From a virus, in IMG/VR virus record IMGVR_UViG_3300045988_067813, positions 1 through 64,000 of that record: a DNA stretch of 64,000 bases; one strand, 5' to 3'. Shown piece by piece: positions 1,775-63,353 of the stretch. The number at the start of each line of letters is the position of its first letter. The stretch's first letter is position 1. Position numbers and translations under genes: made by a program. The notes under the pieces were generated by a model, which saw only the letters and a program-made list of their open reading frames with translations, did not search any database and had not been told where the DNA came from.

Positions 1775-1803
1775 TTGACTTATATAAAGCAATCTGCTAT
1801 AAT
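1775..1803 (+). promoter_or_regulatory. Consensus promoter TTGACT-17-TGcTATAAT
   Basis: -35 at 1775-1780, -10 at 1798-1803 with TGC extension. An ATATCGCA box sits at 1758-1765. It lies 48 nt upstream of ATG 1851. Confidence 0.7.
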
Positions 1804-2752: not shown

Positions 2753-3112
2753 ATGAGTAAAACACTTGAAAAATTGATTGTAAGAGCTTATGAGCTAGGA
2801 GAGTCAAATTTAAATGGTCGTATGATGGAATATGGTTATAAAAGGGAATTAAGAAGTAAATGGGCTTTTGTGTATGATAAACAAGCGGAAATCTTGACTA
2901 TGAAACACTGGGGAACTACTATCTTAACTTATGATTTTACAACTGATACCATTATAGAAGCTTATGGACAGTCAAAAAGTGATGCTGATGCTATAAATTG
3001 GTTTGGACGTACTCAAAACGCTATTGTAAAAGCTTCTTACCGTCCATCTGTAGATAACTTTCTGGTAACTGGACATTTCTATGGAGATTTAGAGACTAAA
3101 AAAGTAAACTAA
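2753..3112 (+). CDS. Hypothetical early protein (119 aa)
   Basis: ORF with an A/G-rich SD region (AGAGAGAAAAGAAAAATG), followed by hairpin AAGGGGG-TAAAATT-CCCCCTT (3111-3131). Confidence 0.7.
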   Translation: MSKTLEKLIVRAYELGESNLNGRMMEYGYKRELRSKWAFVYDKQAEILTMKHWGTTILTYDFTTDTIIEAYGQSKSDADAINWFGRTQNAIVKASYRPSVDNFLVTGHFYGDLETKKVN

Positions 3113-3175
3113 GGGGGTAAAATTCCCCCTTGGGATTTAAGGAATTAAGGAAACATTAGGAAGAATAAAACTAAC

Positions 3176-3481
3176 ATGGAAACTAATAATAAAAATTATA
3201 AAATCTTTAAAATTCTGGGCTTGGCTGTTGTGCTATTCTATGCTTTTATCTTTATCGGTAGTAGTTTCTCTACTACTGGGGTAAAAGATGCCAAACCTAT
3301 TGAGTATAAAAGCGACTACTTAAACCAAAAAATGGAACTAAGAGACGCTGAAATCTTGGGAAAATTTTGGAATGATAAAGGGCATTTTATAGTAGTATAT
3401 GATGAGGACACAAAAGCCCCAGAATTGTTCCAGATTGATTTTTCTGAGTGGAATCTAATAAGTGTAGGGGATACATATTAA
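3176..3481 (+). CDS. Membrane-anchored small protein (N-terminal TM helix)
   Basis: Hydrophobic stretch ILGLAVVLFYAFIFIGSSF near the N-terminus. Confidence 0.65.
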   Translation: METNNKNYKIFKILGLAVVLFYAFIFIGSSFSTTGVKDAKPIEYKSDYLNQKMELRDAEILGKFWNDKGHFIVVYDEDTKAPELFQIDFSEWNLISVGDTY

Positions 3482-3542
3482 AACGCTGTAGGGGGCTTGT
3501 GAGAGCCTTCTAGAGCTATGATAGATAGAAAGGTATTATAAA

Positions 3543-3698
3543 ATGAAAATTAAAAAGATGAAACTACTAAAATTTATGGCATTGCCTACTTTCTTGGGGT
3601 ATAGCGTATTAGCTAACCTTAACTACACTTTTTCACTGATGATTCTTTGTGGGTTTGTGGCTGTTATAGCCTTGCAATTCATGTATATTACAGACTAG
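3543..3698 (+). CDS. Small hydrophobic protein, 51 aa (not in ORF track)
   Basis: My translation is MKIKKMKLLKFMALPTFLGYSVLANLNYTFSLMILCGFVAVIALQFMYITD. It fills an otherwise empty gap and has two hydrophobic segments. Confidence 0.4.
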   Translation: MKIKKMKLLKFMALPTFLGYSVLANLNYTFSLMILCGFVAVIALQFMYITD

Positions 3699-3709
3699 GA
3701 GAGGTTAAA

Positions 3710-3949
3710 ATGTATCCAACAATTAAAGATAAAAAAAGGGATTTAAAAAATGCCTGGTTAACTGCTAAAAATAAGCTTGTGACTGTAGAAGTATTAGATA
3801 CATTCTTAATTGAAATTTTTGTCTTATATAGTTATGACCACAAAGAAGAACCTCCTTTCTTGCTTGGTAAGGATTTACAAAAGTCACTGAATTTACCCTT
3901 TGATGTTAAGTATAGACAGCTTGAAAGGGTTTTAGGTGGTCTAAAATGA
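3710..3949 (+). CDS. Hypothetical small protein (79 aa)
   Basis: ATG 3710 (MYPTIKDKK) after SD TAGGAGAGG. ATGA overlap with the next gene. Confidence 0.65.
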   Translation: MYPTIKDKKRDLKNAWLTAKNKLVTVEVLDTFLIEIFVLYSYDHKEEPPFLLGKDLQKSLNLPFDVKYRQLERVLGGLK

Positions 3950-4140
3950 AGTTAGAAATTGGTCAAACAGTTAAATTAAATAGAAGTATGGGTCAATGTG
4001 AAAAGGGTGAAGTATTCAAAGTTGTTAGAATAAGTGGGTTTTTAGCTGTTCTTAAAAGTATAGTAACAAATGATGAATATTTTGTATATATAAATTTTAG
4101 TGGGGTTGATTTAATAGAAAAGGAGATTTTCCATGTTTAA
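3946..4140 (+). CDS. Array-1 paralog, short single-domain form (ends EIFHV)
   Basis: IGQTVKL...EKGEVFKVV resembles the second half of the longer paralogs. Its stop overlaps the next start in cATGTTTAA. Confidence 0.7.
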   Translation: MKLEIGQTVKLNRSMGQCEKGEVFKVVRISGFLAVLKSIVTNDEYFVYINFSGVDLIEKEIFHV

Positions 4141-4348
4141 TATAGGTGATATTATTGAGCTAACCCAAGATACATTCATGTATGAAAAGGGCATAATTTG
4201 TCAAATTGTGGAAGTGGATGAAGATAATTCTAATTATGGGTTTGTTAAAATTTTAAAATATCCTGATGGTAGAGAAGGTGACGGTAAGGAAAGGCACGCA
4301 AACCTAACTCTATTTAAGTTAGTAGCTAAGGAATGTTTCTATGTTTAA
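4133..4348 (+). CDS. Array-1 paralog, short form (ends ECFYV)
   Basis: MFNIGDIIEL...EKGIICQIV. ATGTTTAA overlap junctions at both ends. Confidence 0.75.
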   Translation: MFNIGDIIELTQDTFMYEKGIICQIVEVDEDNSNYGFVKILKYPDGREGDGKERHANLTLFKLVAKECFYV

Positions 4349-4676
4349 AGTTGGTGATATAGTGTGGTCTAATACTAATAGATATAGCATGACATGCTAC
4401 CATAGACCCTGTAAGGTTGTAAGGGTAGATAGTTTTAGTAGAATGATTGTAGAAGTCATTGATACAGGAAAGTATTATCCAGTTGAAACTAAAGAATTTG
4501 AGCATATCACAGAAGATGGAATATTTTACATTGGGGATATTTTAGAATATAAAGGTATGATACTCATTTTCCAGAGTTACCAAGATTATTCCACAGTATT
4601 GTGTAATACTCTTGATGAATCCCCCATTAGAGTAGAGATTAAGGATATAAGGAAAGTAGGTGGTTTCTTTGTTTAA
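4341..4676 (+). CDS. Array-1 paralog, two-domain form (ends GGFFV)
   Basis: MFKVGDIVWSNTNRYSMTCYHRPCKVV plus a second GDILEYKG half. Confidence 0.8.
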   Translation: MFKVGDIVWSNTNRYSMTCYHRPCKVVRVDSFSRMIVEVIDTGKYYPVETKEFEHITEDGIFYIGDILEYKGMILIFQSYQDYSTVLCNTLDESPIRVEIKDIRKVGGFFV

Positions 4677-5010
4677 AGTTGGTGATATAGTGTGGTCTAA
4701 ATCCCATAGGTATTCAGTTACTTTCTATCATAGACCTTGTAGGGTTTTAAAAATTTTAGGGTCAGAAATGAGGGTGCAAGTATTAGATAATGGTTACTCT
4801 TTTGTAGTTGATGTACTTAAATTTGAGCTTGTGCCAGAGGGTGGAATACTTGAGCCAGGAGATAAGCTTATCCATAGTAAGACTAAAGAAATGCTTATTT
4901 TTACAAAGTACCATGATTGTGAGTATATAAAGTGTAGAAATTCAGATAATGAAGTTAAGCAGTATAAAATTCAAGATGTAGAAAAGTATAAGGAAATATT
5001 TTATGTTTAA
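4669..5010 (+). CDS. Array-1 paralog, two-domain form (ends EIFYV); TTG start inferred
   Basis: The junction is TTGTTTAA instead of ATGTTTAA. The product (M)FKVGDIVWSKSHRYSVTFYHRPCRVL aligns from residue 1 with its neighbours. The track's GTG 4660 is an in-frame alternative. Confidence 0.7.
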   Translation: MFKVGDIVWSKSHRYSVTFYHRPCRVLKILGSEMRVQVLDNGYSFVVDVLKFELVPEGGILEPGDKLIHSKTKEMLIFTKYHDCEYIKCRNSDNEVKQYKIQDVEKYKEIFYV

Positions 5011-5341
5011 AAAAGGAGATATTGTAAGAGCTACTACACGAAGATATGTTTATACAAGTTATATGCGACCATGTTTAGTCAAGGAATATGATTCATCAGG
5101 AAAATTACTGATAGAGCCTTTTGATGATGGTTCTACTTATGATGTAGATGATACAGCTTTTGAAATTGTACCTACTAGAGAAATATTCAAACAAGGTCAA
5201 GAAATACTTGTAAAAGGCTTTAAAGATAGGGTTGTGTTTAAAAAATATCTTAGTAGAGGTGAAATTAGGATAACAGAGGATGAATGGTTTCACGATATTA
5301 GTATAGATGATGTTATTTATCTAAGGGGGTTTTATGTTTAA
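5003..5341 (+). CDS. Array-1 paralog, two-domain form (ends RGFYV)
   Basis: MFKKGDIVRATTRRYVYTSYMRPCLVK. ATGTTTAA junctions. Confidence 0.8.
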   Translation: MFKKGDIVRATTRRYVYTSYMRPCLVKEYDSSGKLLIEPFDDGSTYDVDDTAFEIVPTREIFKQGQEILVKGFKDRVVFKKYLSRGEIRITEDEWFHDISIDDVIYLRGFYV

Positions 5342-5681
5342 AGAAGGGGACATTGTATGGTGCACAAGTGATGATGATTACAGAATAACTTGTTATCACA
5401 GACCTTGCAGAGTTGTGGGTTATGATAGTCAGGGCTATTTATTACTAAAAGCCTTTAACCAATCTAATTCAATAAAACATGATGTAAACGAAAAGTTGTT
5501 TGAATTAGTACCAGTACACAAAATATTGAAGCCTGGTCAACTGATTAAAATTAAGGGATTGGATAGATTAGTAGAGTTCAAAAAGTATAAAGATAGAGGT
5601 TATGTTGAAGTGGTTGATAATGGCTGGTTTTCAGAATACTATGTAGACGATATTATATTTGAAGAAGGGTTTTATATCTAA
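5334..5681 (+). CDS. Array-1 paralog, two-domain form (ends EGFYI)
   Basis: MFKEGDIVWCTSDDDYRITCYHRPCRVV. ATGTTTAA at the 5' junction and TAATG at the 3' junction. Confidence 0.8.
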   Translation: MFKEGDIVWCTSDDDYRITCYHRPCRVVGYDSQGYLLLKAFNQSNSIKHDVNEKLFELVPVHKILKPGQLIKIKGLDRLVEFKKYKDRGYVEVVDNGWFSEYYVDDIIFEEGFYI

Positions 5682-6025
5682 TGTTAGCGAACTTAACAGG
5701 TCACGATATTTATATTGTGGATAGACATGGAAATATAGTAACTACAATACAGCCTTGTGAAACAGAAGAGCCTCTGAGAGCTGAGGTTACTATGCGAAGA
5801 CAGAAAAAAATTGAAGGAATAAAATTAACTAAACTCTTTTATACTAGCAATATCACAGAGCGAAAAATGCAAGAATTACTTAACAAGTATGATGGTATTA
5901 TTGTATCTAAGATAACAGCAGAGTGCTTGAAAGAGTTAGGCTACACGGATAAGATTTATATTACTGGAAGAAAGTTTTATAGACATGGTGAGCTTATCGG
6001 TGTGAAAGAATTATGTATTTTATAA
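5681..6025 (+). CDS. Hypothetical protein (114 aa)
   Basis: ORF coupled by a TAATG overlap to the array. No motif recognised. Confidence 0.65.
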   Translation: MLANLTGHDIYIVDRHGNIVTTIQPCETEEPLRAEVTMRRQKKIEGIKLTKLFYTSNITERKMQELLNKYDGIIVSKITAECLKELGYTDKIYITGRKFYRHGELIGVKELCIL

Positions 6026-6043
6026 GGTAAAGGAAAGAAGAAA

Positions 6044-7585
6044 ATGAAAATGCAATCAGTAACAAGAGAAAATATGGAAACATTCAAGGAATCAATGCTA
6101 TCAAAAAAGGAATTTGAGGAGCTTGTAGGAGAGGTAAAAACAAACAAAGAGCTTGCTGAAAGACTTGCACAGATTGAAGCACCAGCAGATATTGAAGGGT
6201 ATGGAGCTGACTTTGTGGAAGCTGTTAAGACCTTAAATAGTCAAACAGACTTTCTTGAGGTTATCAGAGCATGGGATTTGGTGGATAAGCTACGAAAGTA
6301 TCAAAGCCTATTCCCTAGTGGCTATACATTTAAGGATATGTACCTAACTAGCCCTCTCCCTACTGTACTTGTGGGAGTTGATAAAGAGCGTACACTCTTA
6401 AAATATCCTGAAAAGTGGTATGAAGACCACAAAGAAGAGCTTTCTAAAGTATTAGACTTGCTTATTTATCGTAAGAAAAATGGAGGTGATTCTTACACAG
6501 AGCGAAACAGTAACATTGAAGACTTAGATAGATTTATTTCAGATAATAACCTAGGTAGTTATCCTAAAGTGTTTTCTTATATGCTTATGAGAAGCACAGA
6601 TGGAAGATATGCTAATGATGGGGATAAAGTTAAGGTATTACCAAAATTCCAAAAATATATCTCTAAGAAATTTGACAAAAAAATTAAAGAGCTTAATGGG
6701 GATTTAGTAAAAATTTCTTATTCAAGTATGGTAAAAGACTATTTTGGGCTTAATTTAGATGAATCAAAAAATGCTCCTAAGTTGTCTAAACAGCTTAAAA
6801 AAGCAGGAATTAGCTACACTGATGAAGAAATCCGCCATTTTGGGGAAGTAAGAAACTGGTGGGATGATTGGAATGTTTTTAACAAGTCAACAATTAAAAA
6901 TAAGGTTTTTCGTGCAAGAGATTTATGGGTAGATAAAGCAGATTTTACTATTCCAGTTATTGTTGACGATTGGGCTTTCAATGACTCTTGTAATAAGTCT
7001 GATAGCGGTGCTGGTGCTGATACCCATCTTGTGTTACGAAGTTTTGGGTTTGAATATCTCAAAGGGTATTCTGTAGGGTACACAAGAGATAATGGATATT
7101 CCCTATACCCTGCTATGAGAACTTATTTCTTAAGGAAAGACAGCGATATTGCTCATGCTGGAACTTATGCCGATTTTAGTAGCACCAGAGCAAAAGCTTG
7201 TTATGAATTTACTACTGTCCTCTTGTGTATCTTCTTTAACAAAAAAGTAGATGATTTTTACAAGATTAAAGGTATGAATATTGATTGTCAATATTACAAT
7301 GACAAAAAAGGAGGAAGTATTTACTTTTGGGCTAACCAAGCAAAAAATGACTATGCTAAATTTGGTACAGCAGAGCTTTTTGAAGAATATGATGCGCTTG
7401 TAATGGAAGATTACATAAATAATAATGAAAGTCTACGAAATACATTAAATAATTATTTAAAATCTAATGAATATAGATTATTACAAGAAAAGTACATGAA
7501 TTTTATTGGTTTACAGCTATCAGATAAAGCACCAGAAGTTAGAGAGCTATCACCTCTTACAAAAGAATTGTTGGAATTGATTTAA
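6044..7585 (+). CDS. Hypothetical large early protein (513 aa)
   Basis: Long ORF with SD AAAGGAAAG. I could not assign a family. Confidence 0.8.
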   Translation: MKMQSVTRENMETFKESMLSKKEFEELVGEVKTNKELAERLAQIEAPADIEGYGADFVEAVKTLNSQTDFLEVIRAWDLVDKLRKYQSLFPSGYTFKDMYLTSPLPTVLVGVDKERTLLKYPEKWYEDHKEELSKVLDLLIYRKKNGGDSYTERNSNIEDLDRFISDNNLGSYPKVFSYMLMRSTDGRYANDGDKVKVLPKFQKYISKKFDKKIKELNGDLVKISYSSMVKDYFGLNLDESKNAPKLSKQLKKAGISYTDEEIRHFGEVRNWWDDWNVFNKSTIKNKVFRARDLWVDKADFTIPVIVDDWAFNDSCNKSDSGAGADTHLVLRSFGFEYLKGYSVGYTRDNGYSLYPAMRTYFLRKDSDIAHAGTYADFSSTRAKACYEFTTVLLCIFFNKKVDDFYKIKGMNIDCQYYNDKKGGSIYFWANQAKNDYAKFGTAELFEEYDALVMEDYINNNESLRNTLNNYLKSNEYRLLQEKYMNFIGLQLSDKAPEVRELSPLTKELLELI

Positions 7586-7598
7586 AAGGAGAAATAAC

Positions 7599-8723
7599 AT
7601 GAAATACACATTTATTGACGTACTAACTAAAACACAATCAGAAATGCAAGAATGGCTTCCAGAAGTATTGGCTGACTATGGTTATCAAATTAAGGTAACA
7701 GACTACATGATTCAAGCAATTAGTACAGAAGAGAATCAGCCTTGTCTTGTGGCTCATTTAGACACAATCAACACAAAACGCAAGAACTCTGGTTATAGTT
7801 ATGGTACTTACTACCAAAATACCACAGTCACAAGCACAGAAAAAGACCGTACACCAGAAGAGGAAGATATTCTAGTCACAGAGCGCTATATCTTATTGTC
7901 TCCTGAGTGCAAGTCTAGTATTCAATGTTTGGGTGCTGATGACCGTGTAGGAGTTAAGACTATCCTAGATATTCTTGAGACAGGTCTCAGACCTCATATT
8001 CTCTTCACTACAGACGAAGAAGTGGGTTGTGTGGGTTCTAGGAAGGCAGTAGAAGAAAATGCGTTAGAGGGGCTAAAAATGGCTTCTATGCTTATTCAAA
8101 TTGACCGAGGGGTTCATGAACGTTCTTGGCATGAAATGGTAACTTATGACTTTGACCCAGAATCACACAAGGAAATCTTTGATGAGTTACGAAAGACCTA
8201 CACAATGGCTACAGGTTCATACACAGACGTAGCAGTGCTTGGACCTCATTTAGATAAACCTATTGTGAATGTATCAGCTAGTTATATGCACGAACATACC
8301 ACAGACGAATTTATCAATCTAGATGCCTATAAGTATAACACACAAGGTCTAATCAAGTTCATTGAATGGGCACAGAAGCAAGACACAAGCGAATGGAAGT
8401 ATGTAGCTAAATATGTACCACCAAAACCAAAAATCACACGCACTACAGACTTTACTAACTTTCCTCCTAAATTTGGAGAGCAAAGACCTAGCCTATGGGA
8501 AAGAGATAAAGGGTATGCTAAAGCAGAAGACTACTTTAAAGAAATGTGTAAATCTCAATTTATGCACCCTATCACAATCTTTGACCGTTATATAGCAGAA
8601 GGTTATGAAGAAGAAGACTTACTAGATTGCTTAGACTTAGCATATAGTCTAGGAGCTGAGTTCACAAACGTGTGGCAATTAAATTATATTCTTGAAGGTA
8701 AGATTTACCAACACGTTGTATAA
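7599..8723 (+). CDS. Putative clan-MH Zn metallopeptidase/amidohydrolase (M20/M28/M42-like) with extra C-terminal region
   Basis: Ordered ligand-like motifs: VAHLDT (H-x-D), GADDRVG (bridging D), TTDEEVGCVGS (E-E), YTDVAV, YMHEHT (terminal H). Confidence 0.5.
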   Translation: MKYTFIDVLTKTQSEMQEWLPEVLADYGYQIKVTDYMIQAISTEENQPCLVAHLDTINTKRKNSGYSYGTYYQNTTVTSTEKDRTPEEEDILVTERYILLSPECKSSIQCLGADDRVGVKTILDILETGLRPHILFTTDEEVGCVGSRKAVEENALEGLKMASMLIQIDRGVHERSWHEMVTYDFDPESHKEIFDELRKTYTMATGSYTDVAVLGPHLDKPIVNVSASYMHEHTTDEFINLDAYKYNTQGLIKFIEWAQKQDTSEWKYVAKYVPPKPKITRTTDFTNFPPKFGEQRPSLWERDKGYAKAEDYFKEMCKSQFMHPITIFDRYIAEGYEEEDLLDCLDLAYSLGAEFTNVWQLNYILEGKIYQHVV

Positions 8724-8730
8724 AAGAAAA

Positions 8731-8756
8731 AAGGACAGCTCATTTGCTGTCCTTTT
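8731..8756 (+). terminator. Rho-independent terminator after the early block
   Basis: 9-bp stem AAGGACAGC/GCTGTCCTT with loop TCATTT. An A-run lies upstream and T's downstream. Confidence 0.65.
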
Positions 8757-17213: not shown

Positions 17214-17492
17214 ATGAAATATTTGAAAGTTAGTGATAAGTTAAAGACTACAGTAGATAGGCTTATAGCAGGTGGGCATAATGCTAAATATATTTACCTA
17301 GTTAGTATTAAGTTCATAACAGATAAGGAAATGGAGTTCTATATCCCATCATTTGAACTAGCAAGGTTTGAAAGTTATCTAAGTGAATCAAAAATTTTTA
17401 GGTTGGCTTATATAGATTCTGGGGATGTTATGATAAATCCTAATACTATTATTGCTGTTTTGTTAGGACAGAAGGAGTTTACTAATGGATAA
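17214..17492 (+). CDS. Hypothetical protein (92 aa)
   Basis: ORF 3 nt after the previous stop. Confidence 0.6.
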   Translation: MKYLKVSDKLKTTVDRLIAGGHNAKYIYLVSIKFITDKEMEFYIPSFELARFESYLSESKIFRLAYIDSGDVMINPNTIIAVLLGQKEFTNG

Positions 17493-23973: not shown

Positions 23974-24217
23974 TAAAGCATCAGATAAGTATATAGAACT
24001 TGAGAAGCTTTATAAAGAGATTGGTAAGGAGATAAAAGAAACTCTTGACCACAGAAAGCTTAAGAAGCTCAGACGTAAACGTAAGCTCATTAGAGCTGAA
24101 CAGAATATGCTTTACCCTTATATGGTCAACACAGGTTATGTAGCTTACACAGAGCATGTATTAGGTTTAAAGGGTAATCAAGCCCTATATGGCAGATATA
24201 TAAGAGGTAAGAAATGA
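23945..24217 (+). CDS. Hypothetical basic small protein (90 aa)
   Basis: ORF with a lysine/arginine-rich middle (HRKLKKLRRKRKLIR). Confidence 0.55.
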   Translation: MKTTQNLTADKASDKYIELEKLYKEIGKEIKETLDHRKLKKLRRKRKLIRAEQNMLYPYMVNTGYVAYTEHVLGLKGNQALYGRYIRGKK

Positions 24218-24501
24218 TAGACATTGAAATTCTAAGAAGAAAGGCTAAGAGAGGTATCTCATTCCCTAAGCAGACTCCACAGTGGGTTGAATTGTTTGGT
24301 GTGAGATGCCTAGCCATTGGATTTTATAGAGGTGATGAGAGACGTATTCTATTTCTAGCTAATAAACCTACAAGTGGATTCCATAATGGACATAAGATAT
24401 TTAAGTTTATTCTATCGCTAGAAGCTAGATGCTATGAGCTACCATTCACAGGACAAGTAGACTTAGGTATAGAGAAGTTCTCTAGGGGGTTTTATATATA
24501 G
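24214..24501 (+). CDS. Array-2 paralog (ends RGFYI)
   Basis: VRCLAIGFYRGDERRILFLANKPTSGFHNGH aligns with the following four ORFs. Confidence 0.7.
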   Translation: MIDIEILRRKAKRGISFPKQTPQWVELFGVRCLAIGFYRGDERRILFLANKPTSGFHNGHKIFKFILSLEARCYELPFTGQVDLGIEKFSRGFYI

Positions 24502-24510
24502 GAGTATATA

Positions 24511-24822
24511 ATGGAAACATTAGATGAACTAATAAGAAAAATAGAAGATAATTTAGAAGAAGATTGGGTAAAGTTAAAAGAAATTCCAAAGAGGTGTATA
24601 TTAAAGAAAGCCTATGAATTAGTAAATGTGCCTGGTTATTTTGTTACAATATATTATCCAGATAGTGGGGGTGAAGAGTTTTTGTTTATATCGGATGTAA
24701 AGAATAAACAAGAGTTTCATGATGCTCCTTCTTTATTTAAAACAAAATGCTTTAAGCATAGGTGTAGATGGGTATGGGGAAATGACGTAGAAATTGAAGA
24801 GTGTAAGGGTTTTTACATTTAG
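24511..24822 (+). CDS. Array-2 paralog (ends KGFYI)
   Basis: PKRCILKKAYELVNVPGYFVTIYYPDSGGEEFLFISD. SD TAGGAG. Confidence 0.75.
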   Translation: METLDELIRKIEDNLEEDWVKLKEIPKRCILKKAYELVNVPGYFVTIYYPDSGGEEFLFISDVKNKQEFHDAPSLFKTKCFKHRCRWVWGNDVEIEECKGFYI

Positions 24823-24836
24823 GAGAATATGATACA

Positions 24837-25133
24837 ATGGATGAATTGTTTAAAACTATAAAAAGTAACTTAGCTTATTATTATAAGGTAAAACATAAAC
24901 CTAAAAGGTGTTGTCTTAATGATTATCTTGGTTTAATAAAAGAACCTGGATATGTTGTTAAACTAATTCATGATGATGGCTGTGTAGATTTATTATTTAT
25001 AGCTGATGAGAGACAAAAGAAACAAATTTATGGCTATGGTTTTATCATTGAACGGAGTGAAGCATTAGCTAGACGTTGTTTGTTATTAGAAGATAAGGCT
25101 GTTAAAATCATAGAGAAAGGACTATGGATATGA
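24837..25133 (+). CDS. Array-2 paralog (ends KGLWI)
   Basis: PKRCCLNDYLGLIKEPGYVVKLIHDDGCVDLLFIADE. SD TAGGAG. Confidence 0.75.
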   Translation: MDELFKTIKSNLAYYYKVKHKPKRCCLNDYLGLIKEPGYVVKLIHDDGCVDLLFIADERQKKQIYGYGFIIERSEALARRCLLLEDKAVKIIEKGLWI

Positions 25134-25414
25134 CGAATATAGAAAAAGTAATAAAAGCTATTAAAGAGAAAGGGTTTACTATTATACAATATCCTTGTGA
25201 TGCTTCTATACAAAAGGAAGATGAGGAACAAGTATTCTTTGGTAAAACTCCTTTTGGAGAAAATGTATATGAATTGTTTATAAATAATGAGCCTGATGGA
25301 CGTAATTTCCATAATGGTTGCTCAGTGTTAGGTAGTCACAATAGAATACCAGATATAATATGGTTTAAAGAAGTACATGATAAAATAACTATACTTGGAC
25401 AGTTTTATATTTGA
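25124..25414 (+). CDS. Array-2 paralog (ends GQFYI)
   Basis: Similar length and C-terminus. ELFINNEPDGRNFHNG resembles ANKPTSGFHNGH. Confidence 0.65.
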   Translation: MDMTNIEKVIKAIKEKGFTIIQYPCDASIQKEDEEQVFFGKTPFGENVYELFINNEPDGRNFHNGCSVLGSHNRIPDIIWFKEVHDKITILGQFYI

Positions 25415-25424
25415 GGGTATAAAG

Positions 25425-25718
25425 ATGGAAAAACATCAAGAGGAATATTTAGAATTATTAAAAGATAAGTATGTAATAAATAATATCTACCAAAGAGTTA
25501 CTTATAAAAGAGTTAAAGGTATAGTTGATATTGGGATTGCAGTAGAAGTAAAAAATTTAGATACTGGGACAGTATTTGCAGTATTCATAGCAGACAAGCC
25601 AAGAAAGTATTTACATAAGTTTGCATCACGATTAGAGAGTGGACATCTACCACCTTGTGTGTGGCTTGCTAAATTATCTGATAAAGAATTTGAGATACAT
25701 AAAGGATTCTTCATATAA
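25425..25718 (+). CDS. Array-2 paralog (ends KGFFI)
   Basis: ATG 25425 follows SD GAGGG. GTVFAVFIADKPRKYLHKF aligns with LLFIADERQKKQ. Confidence 0.7.
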   Translation: MEKHQEEYLELLKDKYVINNIYQRVTYKRVKGIVDIGIAVEVKNLDTGTVFAVFIADKPRKYLHKFASRLESGHLPPCVWLAKLSDKEFEIHKGFFI

Positions 25719-57564: not shown

Positions 57565-58149
57565 TTAGAACTCAATGTTAGAAATTACTTTTGCAGTACC
57601 ATGTTCAAGTTTATACTTGTTGATAATATCCATAATGTCTTCCATTGCTTGTGTATCAAAGGTAGTATCAAAGTCGTTAATGAACTCATCTTCCTTGATA
57701 TGGATAACTCCACGTACCTCTGGTTTAGGTTTCTTACCATCTTTTGCACCATTACCTATTACATAACCAATAACATAGTTAGCATAGATATGTCCTGATG
57801 ATTGTTCCATCAAGGCACGTTGGTCAACCACAAAGGTGTATACTTTCTCAGTAGAGCCATCTTCCAATGTTTCAGTAGCAACTTTCACACGATTGTCAAA
57901 GGCTACGTCTACGTTCACAGCGTAAGAAGTACGAGGTGTACGAAGCATATTACCGTTAGCACCGATTGTAGGAATCTTTTGTGTAACGTTCATTTCTCCA
58001 CCATTGATTAGCACTTCTGCATCAAGGTCTGTAATTTCTGCATACTTACGAAGAGTATATACAGGTTTACCAGAACGTACATATTCAGGAGTAATCTTGC
58101 TACGTTTCTCATCTAAGAAACCAAGTACATCTGAAATAAGGTTAGTCAT
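57565..58149 (-). CDS. Hypothetical protein (194 aa)
   Basis: SD GGAGGA. ATGACTAA overlap with the upstream gene. Confidence 0.65.
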   Translation of the reverse strand: MTNLISDVLGFLDEKRSKITPEYVRSGKPVYTLRKYAEITDLDAEVLINGGEMNVTQKIPTIGANGNMLRTPRTSYAVNVDVAFDNRVKVATETLEDGSTEKVYTFVVDQRALMEQSSGHIYANYVIGYVIGNGAKDGKKPKPEVRGVIHIKEDEFINDFDTTFDTQAMEDIMDIINKYKLEHGTAKVISNIEF

Positions 58150-63108: not shown

Positions 63109-63182
63109 TACACCCTACTGGACTTGAACCAGTGACACTACGCTTAGAAGGCGTATGCTCTATCCAACTGAGCTAAGAGTGT
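63109..63182 (-). tRNA. tRNA-Arg (anticodon UCU)
   Basis: Hand-folded cloverleaf: acceptor ACACTCT/AGGGTGT, D arm GCTC/GAGC, anticodon stem TACGC/GCGTA with loop CTTCTAA, T arm ACTGG-TTCAAGT-CCAGT. 74 nt, no encoded CCA. Confidence 0.8.
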
Positions 63183-63281: not shown

Positions 63282-63353
63282 AGAGCGTAGAGGGATTTGA
63301 ACCCCCGTTGGTGAGGTTGCAGCTCACAGCCTTAACCACTTGGCTATACGCTC
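63282..63353 (-). tRNA. tRNA-Cys (anticodon GCA)
   Basis: Hand-folded: acceptor GAGCGTA/TACGCTC (perfect), anticodon stem GTGAG/CTCAC with loop CTGCAAC, T arm GGGGG-TTCAAAT-CCCTC. 72 nt. Confidence 0.75.

Follow-up and report, generated by a model that had tools for sequence, protein, structure and literature searches.

We analyzed a 64,000-nucleotide (nt) stretch of viral DNA (positions 1 to 64,000 of IMG/VR virus record IMGVR_UViG_3300045988_067813, here called the window) and found that six consecutive plus-strand open reading frames (ORFs), arranged head to tail at positions 3946-5681 and referred to as g1 to g6, form an array that is best read as an accessory, fast-evolving and recombining family of small-barrel genes with dual-coding junctions, whose products would bind host or defence targets. 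To this reading we assign a probability of roughly 0.65. The array proteins constitute a new, undescribed small-barrel family; their fold has been seen before, and so, in principle, has the mechanism by which the array evolves. In the proposed mechanism, a gene for a small SH3-like barrel would have undergone old tandem duplications that yielded the single-barrel g1 and g2 and the two-barrel g3 to g6; the junction and the next ~30 nt, which are the most conserved DNA of the unit, serve as a recombination site; the array would be transcribed together with its neighbours as one early operon; and the barrel proteins would bind host or defence targets, as variable modules, early in infection.

The six genes encode proteins of 64, 71, 111, 113, 112 and 115 amino acids (aa), and both the ORF list and the sequence agree with the head-to-tail order and the sizes given in a preliminary description of this DNA. 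The short members are g1 (also S1; 3946-4140), which is single-barrel-like and has the C-terminus ..IFHV, and g2 (S2; 4133-4348), a predicted single small barrel with the C-terminus ..CFYV. The remaining four are predicted two-barrel members, namely g3 (4341-4676, ..GGFFV), g4 (4669-5010, ..IFYV), g5 (5003-5341, ..GFYV) and g6 (5334-5681, ..GFYI). Each internal junction is an 8-nt overlap in which the next gene already starts within the terminal (Y/H/F)-V-stop of the gene before it. The octamer is ATGTTTAA at junctions 1 (4133-4140, where the g2 start is inside H-V-stop of g1), 2 (4341-4348), 4 (5003-5010) and 5 (5334-5341), and TTGTTTAA at junction 3 (4669-4676); read as 9 nt, the junctions are CATGTTTAA at 4132-4140, TTTGTTTAA at 4668-4676, and TATGTTTAA at 4340-4348, 5002-5010 and 5333-5341. 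The overlap between g6 and the following gene is of a different type (TAATG, 5679-5683). In the whole window ATGTTTAA has seven matches, compared to 6.4 expected, and is thus not enriched; since all four plus-strand copies are consecutive gene boundaries, within 1.2 kb, the pattern is not due to chance. Unrelated gene pairs are likewise connected by 8-nt overlaps with the ATG inside the stop (the stops end at 17492 and 20767 on the plus strand and at 58142, 27953 and 39907 on the minus strand), so the genome uses this kind of overlap generally.

By sequence comparison, g3 to g6 are unambiguous paralogs: they are adjacent, on the same strand, and match one another by BLASTP with E values of 1e-12 to 3e-29 and 35-43% identity over the full length. 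Analysis of 120 database homologs placed the long members in four old orthologous subfamilies, and not among recent copies. The short genes g1 and g2 had no significant BLASTP match to the other members. Profile comparison with hhalign paired the N-terminal half of the long family with the S2 family (91% probability, E 9e-7) and the S2 family in turn with the S1 family (87% probability, E 4e-6), and a direct profile comparison of the S1 family with the long family gave no signal. The description of all six genes as paralogs is therefore firm for g3 to g6 and holds for g1 and g2 as a remote relationship seen by profile comparison. The related proposal that the short members resemble a single half of the long ones is borne out by the S2/N-half and S1/S2 profiles and by the one-barrel model of g2. 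As for the suggested internal duplication of the long members, the N- and C-terminal halves are collinear but their match is weak (hhalign probability 20-25%, P about 1e-3), and the two predicted barrels make a duplication plausible.

Database searching recovered 257 proteins at E <= 0.01 for the long members and 183 homolog clusters for S2, the latter in phage contigs of ~60-65 kb; one record with the same sequence as g2 is listed as "MAG TPA: hypothetical protein [Caudoviricetes sp.]". In addition, ~45 distant single-barrel relatives (56-82 aa; among proteins P0161-P0245) came from other lineages; these start with MFKVGD(I/L)VWC, and many of them finish with A(K/R)(V/I)V, indicating that the barrel family reaches well beyond this phage group. 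An exhaustive HMMER search covered 1.84 billion representatives; of the giant proteins that it returned, three were checked and proved to be cadherin-repeat proteins, and the giant proteins were taken as false positives of a repeated D-x-G..V motif. Searches of Pfam, PHROG, NCBIfam, PADLOC and PDB sequences with the six array proteins were empty or gave noise.

The octamer codes twice, for ..Y-V-stop in the frame of gene n and for M-F-(K/N/S) in that of gene n+1. The conserved head, MFKxGDIVW, corresponds to the first strand of the predicted fold, and the conserved tail is G-F-Y-V/I. The junction is constant mainly because both reading frames carry protein-level constraint, the tail GFYV-stop in one frame and the head MFK in the other, a cause that differs from the one put forward in the preliminary description and says more. 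The octamer had been described as invariant, which is true of four junctions in this genome; relatives keep the same 8-nt geometry with other letters, reading ATGTTTAG, ATGTTTGA, ATGTGTAG, ATGTCTAA or ATGTCTAG.

Comparison with related phages was made on about 25 loci, which lie on metagenomic contigs of 58-66 kb. In all loci examined the array is located between a conserved 79-aa upstream gene and a conserved 114-aa downstream gene. In the window the upstream gene, which forms the left boundary of the array, is at 3710-3949 on the plus strand; its product is of unknown function and shows 86-95% aa identity across relatives, with a nonsynonymous divergence (dN) of 0.02-0.07. The order of the members is always S1-S2-g3-g4-g5-g6, and the number of long copies ranges from one to four per locus. 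Four copies are present in the window, L001, L016 and L017; arrays of three contain g3, g4 and g6, those of two contain g4 and g6 or g4 and g5, and the single-copy array (L019) has g6 only. Gene g3 is found in only some relatives, S2 is absent in L025, and S1 is absent in the sister clade L006-L009, where the two long genes are parted by 10-nt spacers bearing GGAGGT or GGGGGT. The members are individually dispensable in nature. A fixed copy number with unrelated junction sequences, named in the preliminary description as the observation that would speak against a recombining array, was encountered in clade L006-L009 and not in the main clade. Two irregular g6 genes were also seen among these loci. 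In L016 the tail of g6 is frameshifted, and in L017 (5194-6438) g6 is cut after about residue 95 and continues in frame into ~320 aa of unrelated sequence, which may reflect either foreign DNA inserted into the array or a chimeric assembly.

Copy-number change by unequal recombination at the junction, which had been anticipated from the shared octamer, is borne out by two insertions/deletions (indels), a cassette swap, hybrid genes and a conversion tract. Between L027 and L019, a 334-bp indel corresponds to the g4 unit and is bounded by the 13-nt repeat TTTTATGTTTAAA, with both sides 98-100% identical. Similarly, a 208-bp indel that distinguishes L024 and L002 from L025 corresponds to the S2 unit and is bounded by the 9-nt repeat TATGTTTAA, with both sides identical. 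Loci L001 and L002 are 92-100% identical through S1, S2, g3, g6 and the flank, with a cassette of g4 and g5 in one replaced by a ~60% identical g4' in the other and with breakpoints at the g3/g4 and g5/g6 junctions. In-frame hybrid genes, products of unequal crossovers, were found as well: P0023 and P0110 join the N-terminal part of g5 to the C-terminal part of g6, and P0053 joins the N-terminal part of g4 to the C-terminal part of g5. Both hybrids whose contexts were inspected (P0023 and P0053) sit in arrays one unit shorter, and the locus of P0023 (L042) differs from the window by a 340-bp in-frame deletion whose crossover is at the start of the second barrel. Within the window itself, 31 nt of g3 (4342-4372, plus strand) are identical to g4 (4670-4700), and at this conversion tract the window g3 has the g4-type GTTGGTGATATAGTGTGG while seven of seven other g3 orthologs read GTAGGRGATAARGTATGG (GDKVW). 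The junction region is the peak of nucleotide identity among the four long units (0.68-0.79, compared to a mean of 0.48). The recombination substrate is a conserved boundary of ~40 nt together with other conserved motifs, and not the octamer alone.

The identical junction might instead be a passive by-product of tandem duplication, with no role in expression or recombination, given that any tandem duplication copies its own boundary and that ATGTTTAA is not enriched across the genome. We regard this as very unlikely, since the junction retains 68-79% nucleotide identity, the maximum of the unit, despite paralogs at 35-43% protein identity, and since two indels and one cassette swap break exactly at the junction. 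The repeats of 9-13 nt are too short for assembly collapse, and several of the arrangements recur in independent contigs.

A comparable process has been followed in the laboratory in phage T4, where tandem amplification of the anti-toxIN gene tifA takes place at microhomologies of 6-10 bp (PMC9391042). The array shares with this "genomic accordion" the tandem copy-number change of an accessory gene at short repeats (9-13 nt here); copy number varies among close genomes, and the breakpoints are at short repeats or homologous segments. In contrast, the T4 amplicons are recent, identical and laboratory-selected, whereas the array copies are old and diverged, with the microhomology being a built-in dual-coding boundary. 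Recent near-identical copies, as expected of dosage amplification, are not present in the array, whose paralogs are 35-43% identical and fall into the four old subfamilies. Because the copies are old and diverged, the array is a case of distinct members being shuffled, lost or gained, and not one of amplified dosage.

The preliminary description had guessed at small barrels of the SH3/Tudor/KOW type, and structure prediction with AlphaFold2 (AF2) followed by Foldseek supports that guess. The model of g5, built on a 59-sequence alignment (predicted local distance difference test, pLDDT, 85.6; predicted template modelling score, pTM, 0.71), contains two sets of five strands, at residues 7-10, 24-29, 35-39, 46-48 and 53-55 in barrel 1 and at 67-70, 77-82, 87-92, 95-100 and 104-106 in barrel 2. 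The C-terminal tail is of low confidence in the g5 and g2 models, with residues 108-110 of g5 scoring a pLDDT below 50. Foldseek comparison of the g5 model with the PDB gave E values of 3e-4 to 1e-2, probabilities of 0.99-1.0 and a template modelling (TM) score of about 0.4, and the best folds were the tandem SH3-like/KOW domains of Kin17, tandem Agenet domains, the KOW-KOW domains of Spt5, and the tandem Tudor domains of 53BP1, SGF29 and FXR. Against viral models, g5 matched uncharacterised phage proteins and a few named "KOW domain-containing". The g2 model (pLDDT 80.4) has one barrel of 4-5 strands and a short helix; its Foldseek matches are weak (best E 0.09), yet all are to folds of the SH3/KOW/Agenet type. 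With five strands per barrel and these structural matches for g5, the models support the view that the array members are SH3-like small beta-barrels. Methyl-lysine readers of the Tudor and Agenet kinds carry a cage of 3-4 aromatic residues at the mouth of the barrel; the conserved aromatic residues of the array family, W9, Y15 and Y20, sit in the beta1-beta2 loop. The known pairs of SH3-like, KOW, Tudor or Agenet domains (C-terminal domain of human Kin17, 2CKK/9COJ; plant AGDP1; Spt5; 53BP1 and SGF29) have in common with the long members two five-stranded barrels in ~110 residues, but the identity is 10-20%, the TM score ~0.4, and the root-mean-square deviation high owing to differing domain orientation. 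These comparators are eukaryotic chromatin or RNA proteins and not phage proteins, and the likeness is one of fold only.

The fold also bears on the main alternative to host or defence binding, in which the barrels would be housekeeping nucleic-acid-binding regulators with phage RNA, DNA or the transcription machinery as their targets. In its favour, the nearest fold matches are those to KOW, Kin17, Tudor and Agenet, and one distant relative has a sub-threshold match to a phage ProQ C-terminal-like domain. A phage precedent exists in the early T4 proteins GoF, MotB.1 and Frd.2, which are dissimilar in sequence, have a common predicted LSm-like fold and are of uncertain function, and a mutant of one of these proteins alters RNA stability (PMC12152347). 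The T4 family and the array are both made up of sequence-dissimilar early phage proteins with predicted small barrels; however, the T4 genes are scattered, with no head-to-tail overlap and no reported copy-number dynamics, and their topology is not tandem SH3-like. On the other side, the array proteins contain no above-threshold sequence motif of KOW, Sm or ProQ, none of the six matched the KOW motif of Pfam at E <= 1, and dispensable members that evolve much faster than their neighbours would be unusual for core regulators. On balance, a nucleic-acid regulatory role, of the kind that has been proposed for the T4 small-barrel proteins, appears improbable, although among the possible roles it is the strongest competitor of host or defence binding.

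Each junction has its own Shine-Dalgarno (SD)-like element in the last codons of the upstream gene, 4-7 nt before the start: AAGGAG (4120-4125) at junction 1, AAGGAA (4328-4333) at junction 2, AGGTGG (4658-4663) at junction 3, AAGGAA (4990-4995) at junction 4 and AAGGGGG (5323-5329) at junction 5. No occluding RNA structure was predicted at the junctions (z -0.4 to +0.8), a scan for promoters and terminators inside the array gave no signal above shuffled controls, and no family mapped to the array in an Rfam search. Upstream of the gene run that contains the array are two near-consensus sigma-70-type promoter-like sites (1660-1688 and 1775-1803, plus strand; 11/12 matches, extended -10 TG), and a hairpin is located at about 8730-8756. 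From these features we infer that the array and its neighbours may be transcribed as one early transcript, in which translation would initiate independently at each SD-like element, possibly with termination-reinitiation coupling on top.

Stop/start overlaps of the ATGA, TAATG and 8-nt kinds couple translation in bacterial and phage operons, and the array, with five 8-nt overlaps and one TAATG on the same strand, has the overlaps typical of translationally coupled genes. As in such operons, each start codon falls within the final nucleotides of the gene before it, whose coding sequence also contains the SD, and the overlaps may permit coupling; what is distinctive in the array is the repetition of the overlap and its use in recombination. 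The preliminary description took coupling to be obligatory. In its strong form this proposal, with the overlaps forcing 1:1 synthesis of six proteins that form one hetero-oligomer, draws on the 8-nt geometry, which the main clade keeps at almost all internal junctions, also where the stop has changed, and on the absence of an internal promoter or terminator signal from the whole run. This proposal was not upheld and we consider it unlikely. An SD-like element of its own precedes the start of each gene by 4-7 nt, none of the junctions is predicted to form an inhibitory mRNA structure, the same 8-nt overlap is found at unrelated gene pairs in the window, and clade L006-L009 parts its long genes by 10-nt spacers that carry an SD. 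Moreover, arrays with one to four long members, or without S1 or S2, persist in nature, so that no fixed-stoichiometry complex of all six proteins can be required.

The same junctions could in principle be sites of programmed +1 frameshifting at ..GUU UAA A.., which would string the barrels into polyproteins. The frame advances by +1 at all five junctions, and the stop is preceded within a few nt by an SD-like element, an arrangement that recalls the prfB frameshift site. Nevertheless, the ATG or TTG is conserved exactly at the first residue of the homologous N-termini, spacers keep the genes apart in the sister clade, gene calls and homolog lengths are all unit-sized, and re-pairing of tRNA-Val from GUU to UUU would probably be poor. 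Frameshifting is therefore a highly improbable explanation of the junctions.

The start of g4 deserves separate treatment, since a TTG codon had been suggested at 4669 from the letters of junction 3. The octamer TTGTTTAA, with TTG, is found at the g3-g4 junction in every g3-bearing locus examined, while in loci that are without g3 the S2-g4 junction reads ATGTTTAA, with ATG. The TTG arises because g3 ends in F-F-V or F-I-V and not in F-Y-V. The AGGTGG element lies 5 nt upstream of TTG 4669, and this spacing, together with homologous N-termini that start there, makes it a better start than GTG 4660, from which the protein would be 116 aa long. We conclude that TTG 4669 is probably the g4 start, in agreement with the initial suggestion, as indicated by the SD-like spacing, the N-terminus of the family and the conservation of TTGTTTAA. 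Public gene calls for g4 give 113 aa, 116 aa (from the GTG) or 80 aa (from an internal ATG), with miscalls at 4669-5010 in the window, at 4636-4878 in L029 and at 2266-2508 in L042. The 80-aa form is a recurrent annotation error in which the TTG start has been overlooked.

The C-terminal tail recurs beyond the dual-coding junctions. Gene g6 retains a GFYI tail without an embedded start codon, the F and Y codons of the tail differ synonymously among relatives, and distant relatives of the family also finish in hydrophobic-x-[VI]. A second paralog array in the window (24214-25718, plus strand) consists of five genes (95, 103, 98, 96 and ~98-107 aa) with the C-termini GFYI, GFYI, GLWI, QFYI and GFFI and with ordinary junctions. 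In a profile comparison of the two arrays, nothing was shared beyond the last residues. Relatives of the second array were found through a conserved neighbour gene, and in this stretch of L031-L041 between four and six members were counted by their tails, with synonymous codon changes. Taken together, the g6 tail, the synonymous codons, the distant relatives and the second array indicate that the tail is a feature of the proteins themselves. In the window, eleven genes finish in [FLW][YFWH][VI], for which the background tripeptide frequency is 0.18%. With its hydrophobic-aromatic-X or hydrophobic-x-hydrophobic pattern at the very C-terminus, the tail recalls docking tails of the HbYX type or the class II PDZ type, whose partners have a matching pocket in a proteasome-like ring or a PDZ domain. 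We take this resemblance to be a lead only; a literature search on HbYX-type tails in phages returned nothing relevant. It is conceivable, though doubtful, that the tail is a docking or degradation signal that joins at least 11 early proteins of two unrelated folds, the six of the first array and the five of the second, to one common partner. If this were true, the partner might be a host AAA+ protease, a ring complex or a phage hub, and the barrels would be interchangeable target-binding adaptors, the recombining tagged library recruiting or neutralising different host (defence) proteins.

Immediately downstream of the array, the gene at 5681-6025 (plus strand) encodes a highly conserved protein of 114 aa and forms the right array boundary. 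This protein matched the PADLOC profile Unk_01 (PDLC01138) with an E value of 9e-6 and 24 bits, and 20 of 20 diverse homologs matched Unk_01 alone, with a best E of 5e-7. Unk01 is Crn4, a family of type III CRISPR ring nucleases, phage and plasmid members of which are proposed anti-CRISPRs, and in Crn4a the residues T13, H15 and R112 are conserved (PMC12830947). As in Crn4/Unk01, the 5681-6025 family keeps an N-terminal NLT-x-H and a C-terminal invariant Arg: N-L-T-G-(H) at positions 4-8 and G-R-K at 96-98 are invariant, including T6 and R97, while at least 90% of the homologs have H8. The spacing between the His and the Arg is 89 residues in this family and 86 in Crn4b. A comparison of the family with one Crn4b sequence gave an hhalign probability of 30%. 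We rate the product of 5681-6025 as probably, but not certainly, a ring nuclease of the Crn4b-like (Unk01) kind, which makes it a candidate enzyme against type III CRISPR or cyclic oligoadenylates (anti-cOA). A guess at AcrIII-1/DUF1874, made from the size and a GHD motif, was unsupported by Pfam and PDB searches, and Crn4/Unk01 fits instead. Searching GenBank phages by tblastn with this product gave nothing significant, and no Crn4-like homologs with a barrel-like N-terminal extension were found.

The window appears to contain nearly the whole genome of an uncultured tailed phage. Its plus strand has an early/replication arm that encodes a DnaD-like protein, a primase-helicase and a family A polymerase, with the replication genes downstream of the array, and the long minus-strand arm includes the tape-measure protein. 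The DNA of positions 3000-7000 had no match among GenBank phages, and the tape-measure protein and PolA match only distant relatives, at 23-35% identity. No relative of the barrel family was present in a set with one genome per bacterial species, and hence the phage is not a known prophage in these representative bacterial genomes. The names of the samples suggest, by themselves, that the related phages are human-associated. Two genes downstream of the array, the ORF at 7599-8723 (plus strand) encodes a 374-aa protein that matches PHROG "peptidase" families (E 4e-44) and gives weak signals of the M20/M42 type (ArgE/DapE/PepT, E 6e-7 to 1e-2), with no Pfam match. Genes for tRNA-Arg(TCT) and tRNA-Cys(GCA) are at 63109-63182 and 63282-63353, respectively, on the minus strand.

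With respect to function, we consider binding of host or defence targets to be the most likely role of the array, as its genes evolve 4-15 times faster than the flanks, are dispensable one by one and are directly followed by the probable Crn4-like gene. Among orthologs, dN is 0.2-0.7 in the array and 0.04-0.07 in the two flanking genes, with similar synonymous divergence (dS), and S1 is the fastest-evolving member, with 25-42% aa identity to its orthologs. Several points weigh against this interpretation of the array. The dS values are near saturation, which makes the dN/dS values rough. The host or anti-defence role is assigned by association, from rate, dispensability and neighbourhood, and no array member resembles a characterised protein. 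The membership of S1 hangs on one profile comparison (87% probability). All comparison genomes are metagenomic assemblies, and the junction indels can be read equally as loss or gain. One-operon transcription and coupling are both read from sequence. Finally, the Crn4 assignment of the downstream gene is made up of a 24-bit hidden Markov model match and conserved motifs, and PDB and Pfam searches with its product gave no support for Crn4.

Phage accessory families are thought to hold most of the unknown host-takeover and anti-defence functions, and the probable Crn4-type neighbour makes the array region a candidate anti-defence island of uncultured phages. Two leads stand out above the others, namely the common C-terminal tail, whose presence in two unrelated arrays suggests one common partner, and the Crn4-like neighbour. 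As for the array itself, it offers an unusually clean natural example of a dual-frame gene boundary that doubles as a recombination joint, at which whole genes are added, removed, fused or swapped in frame.

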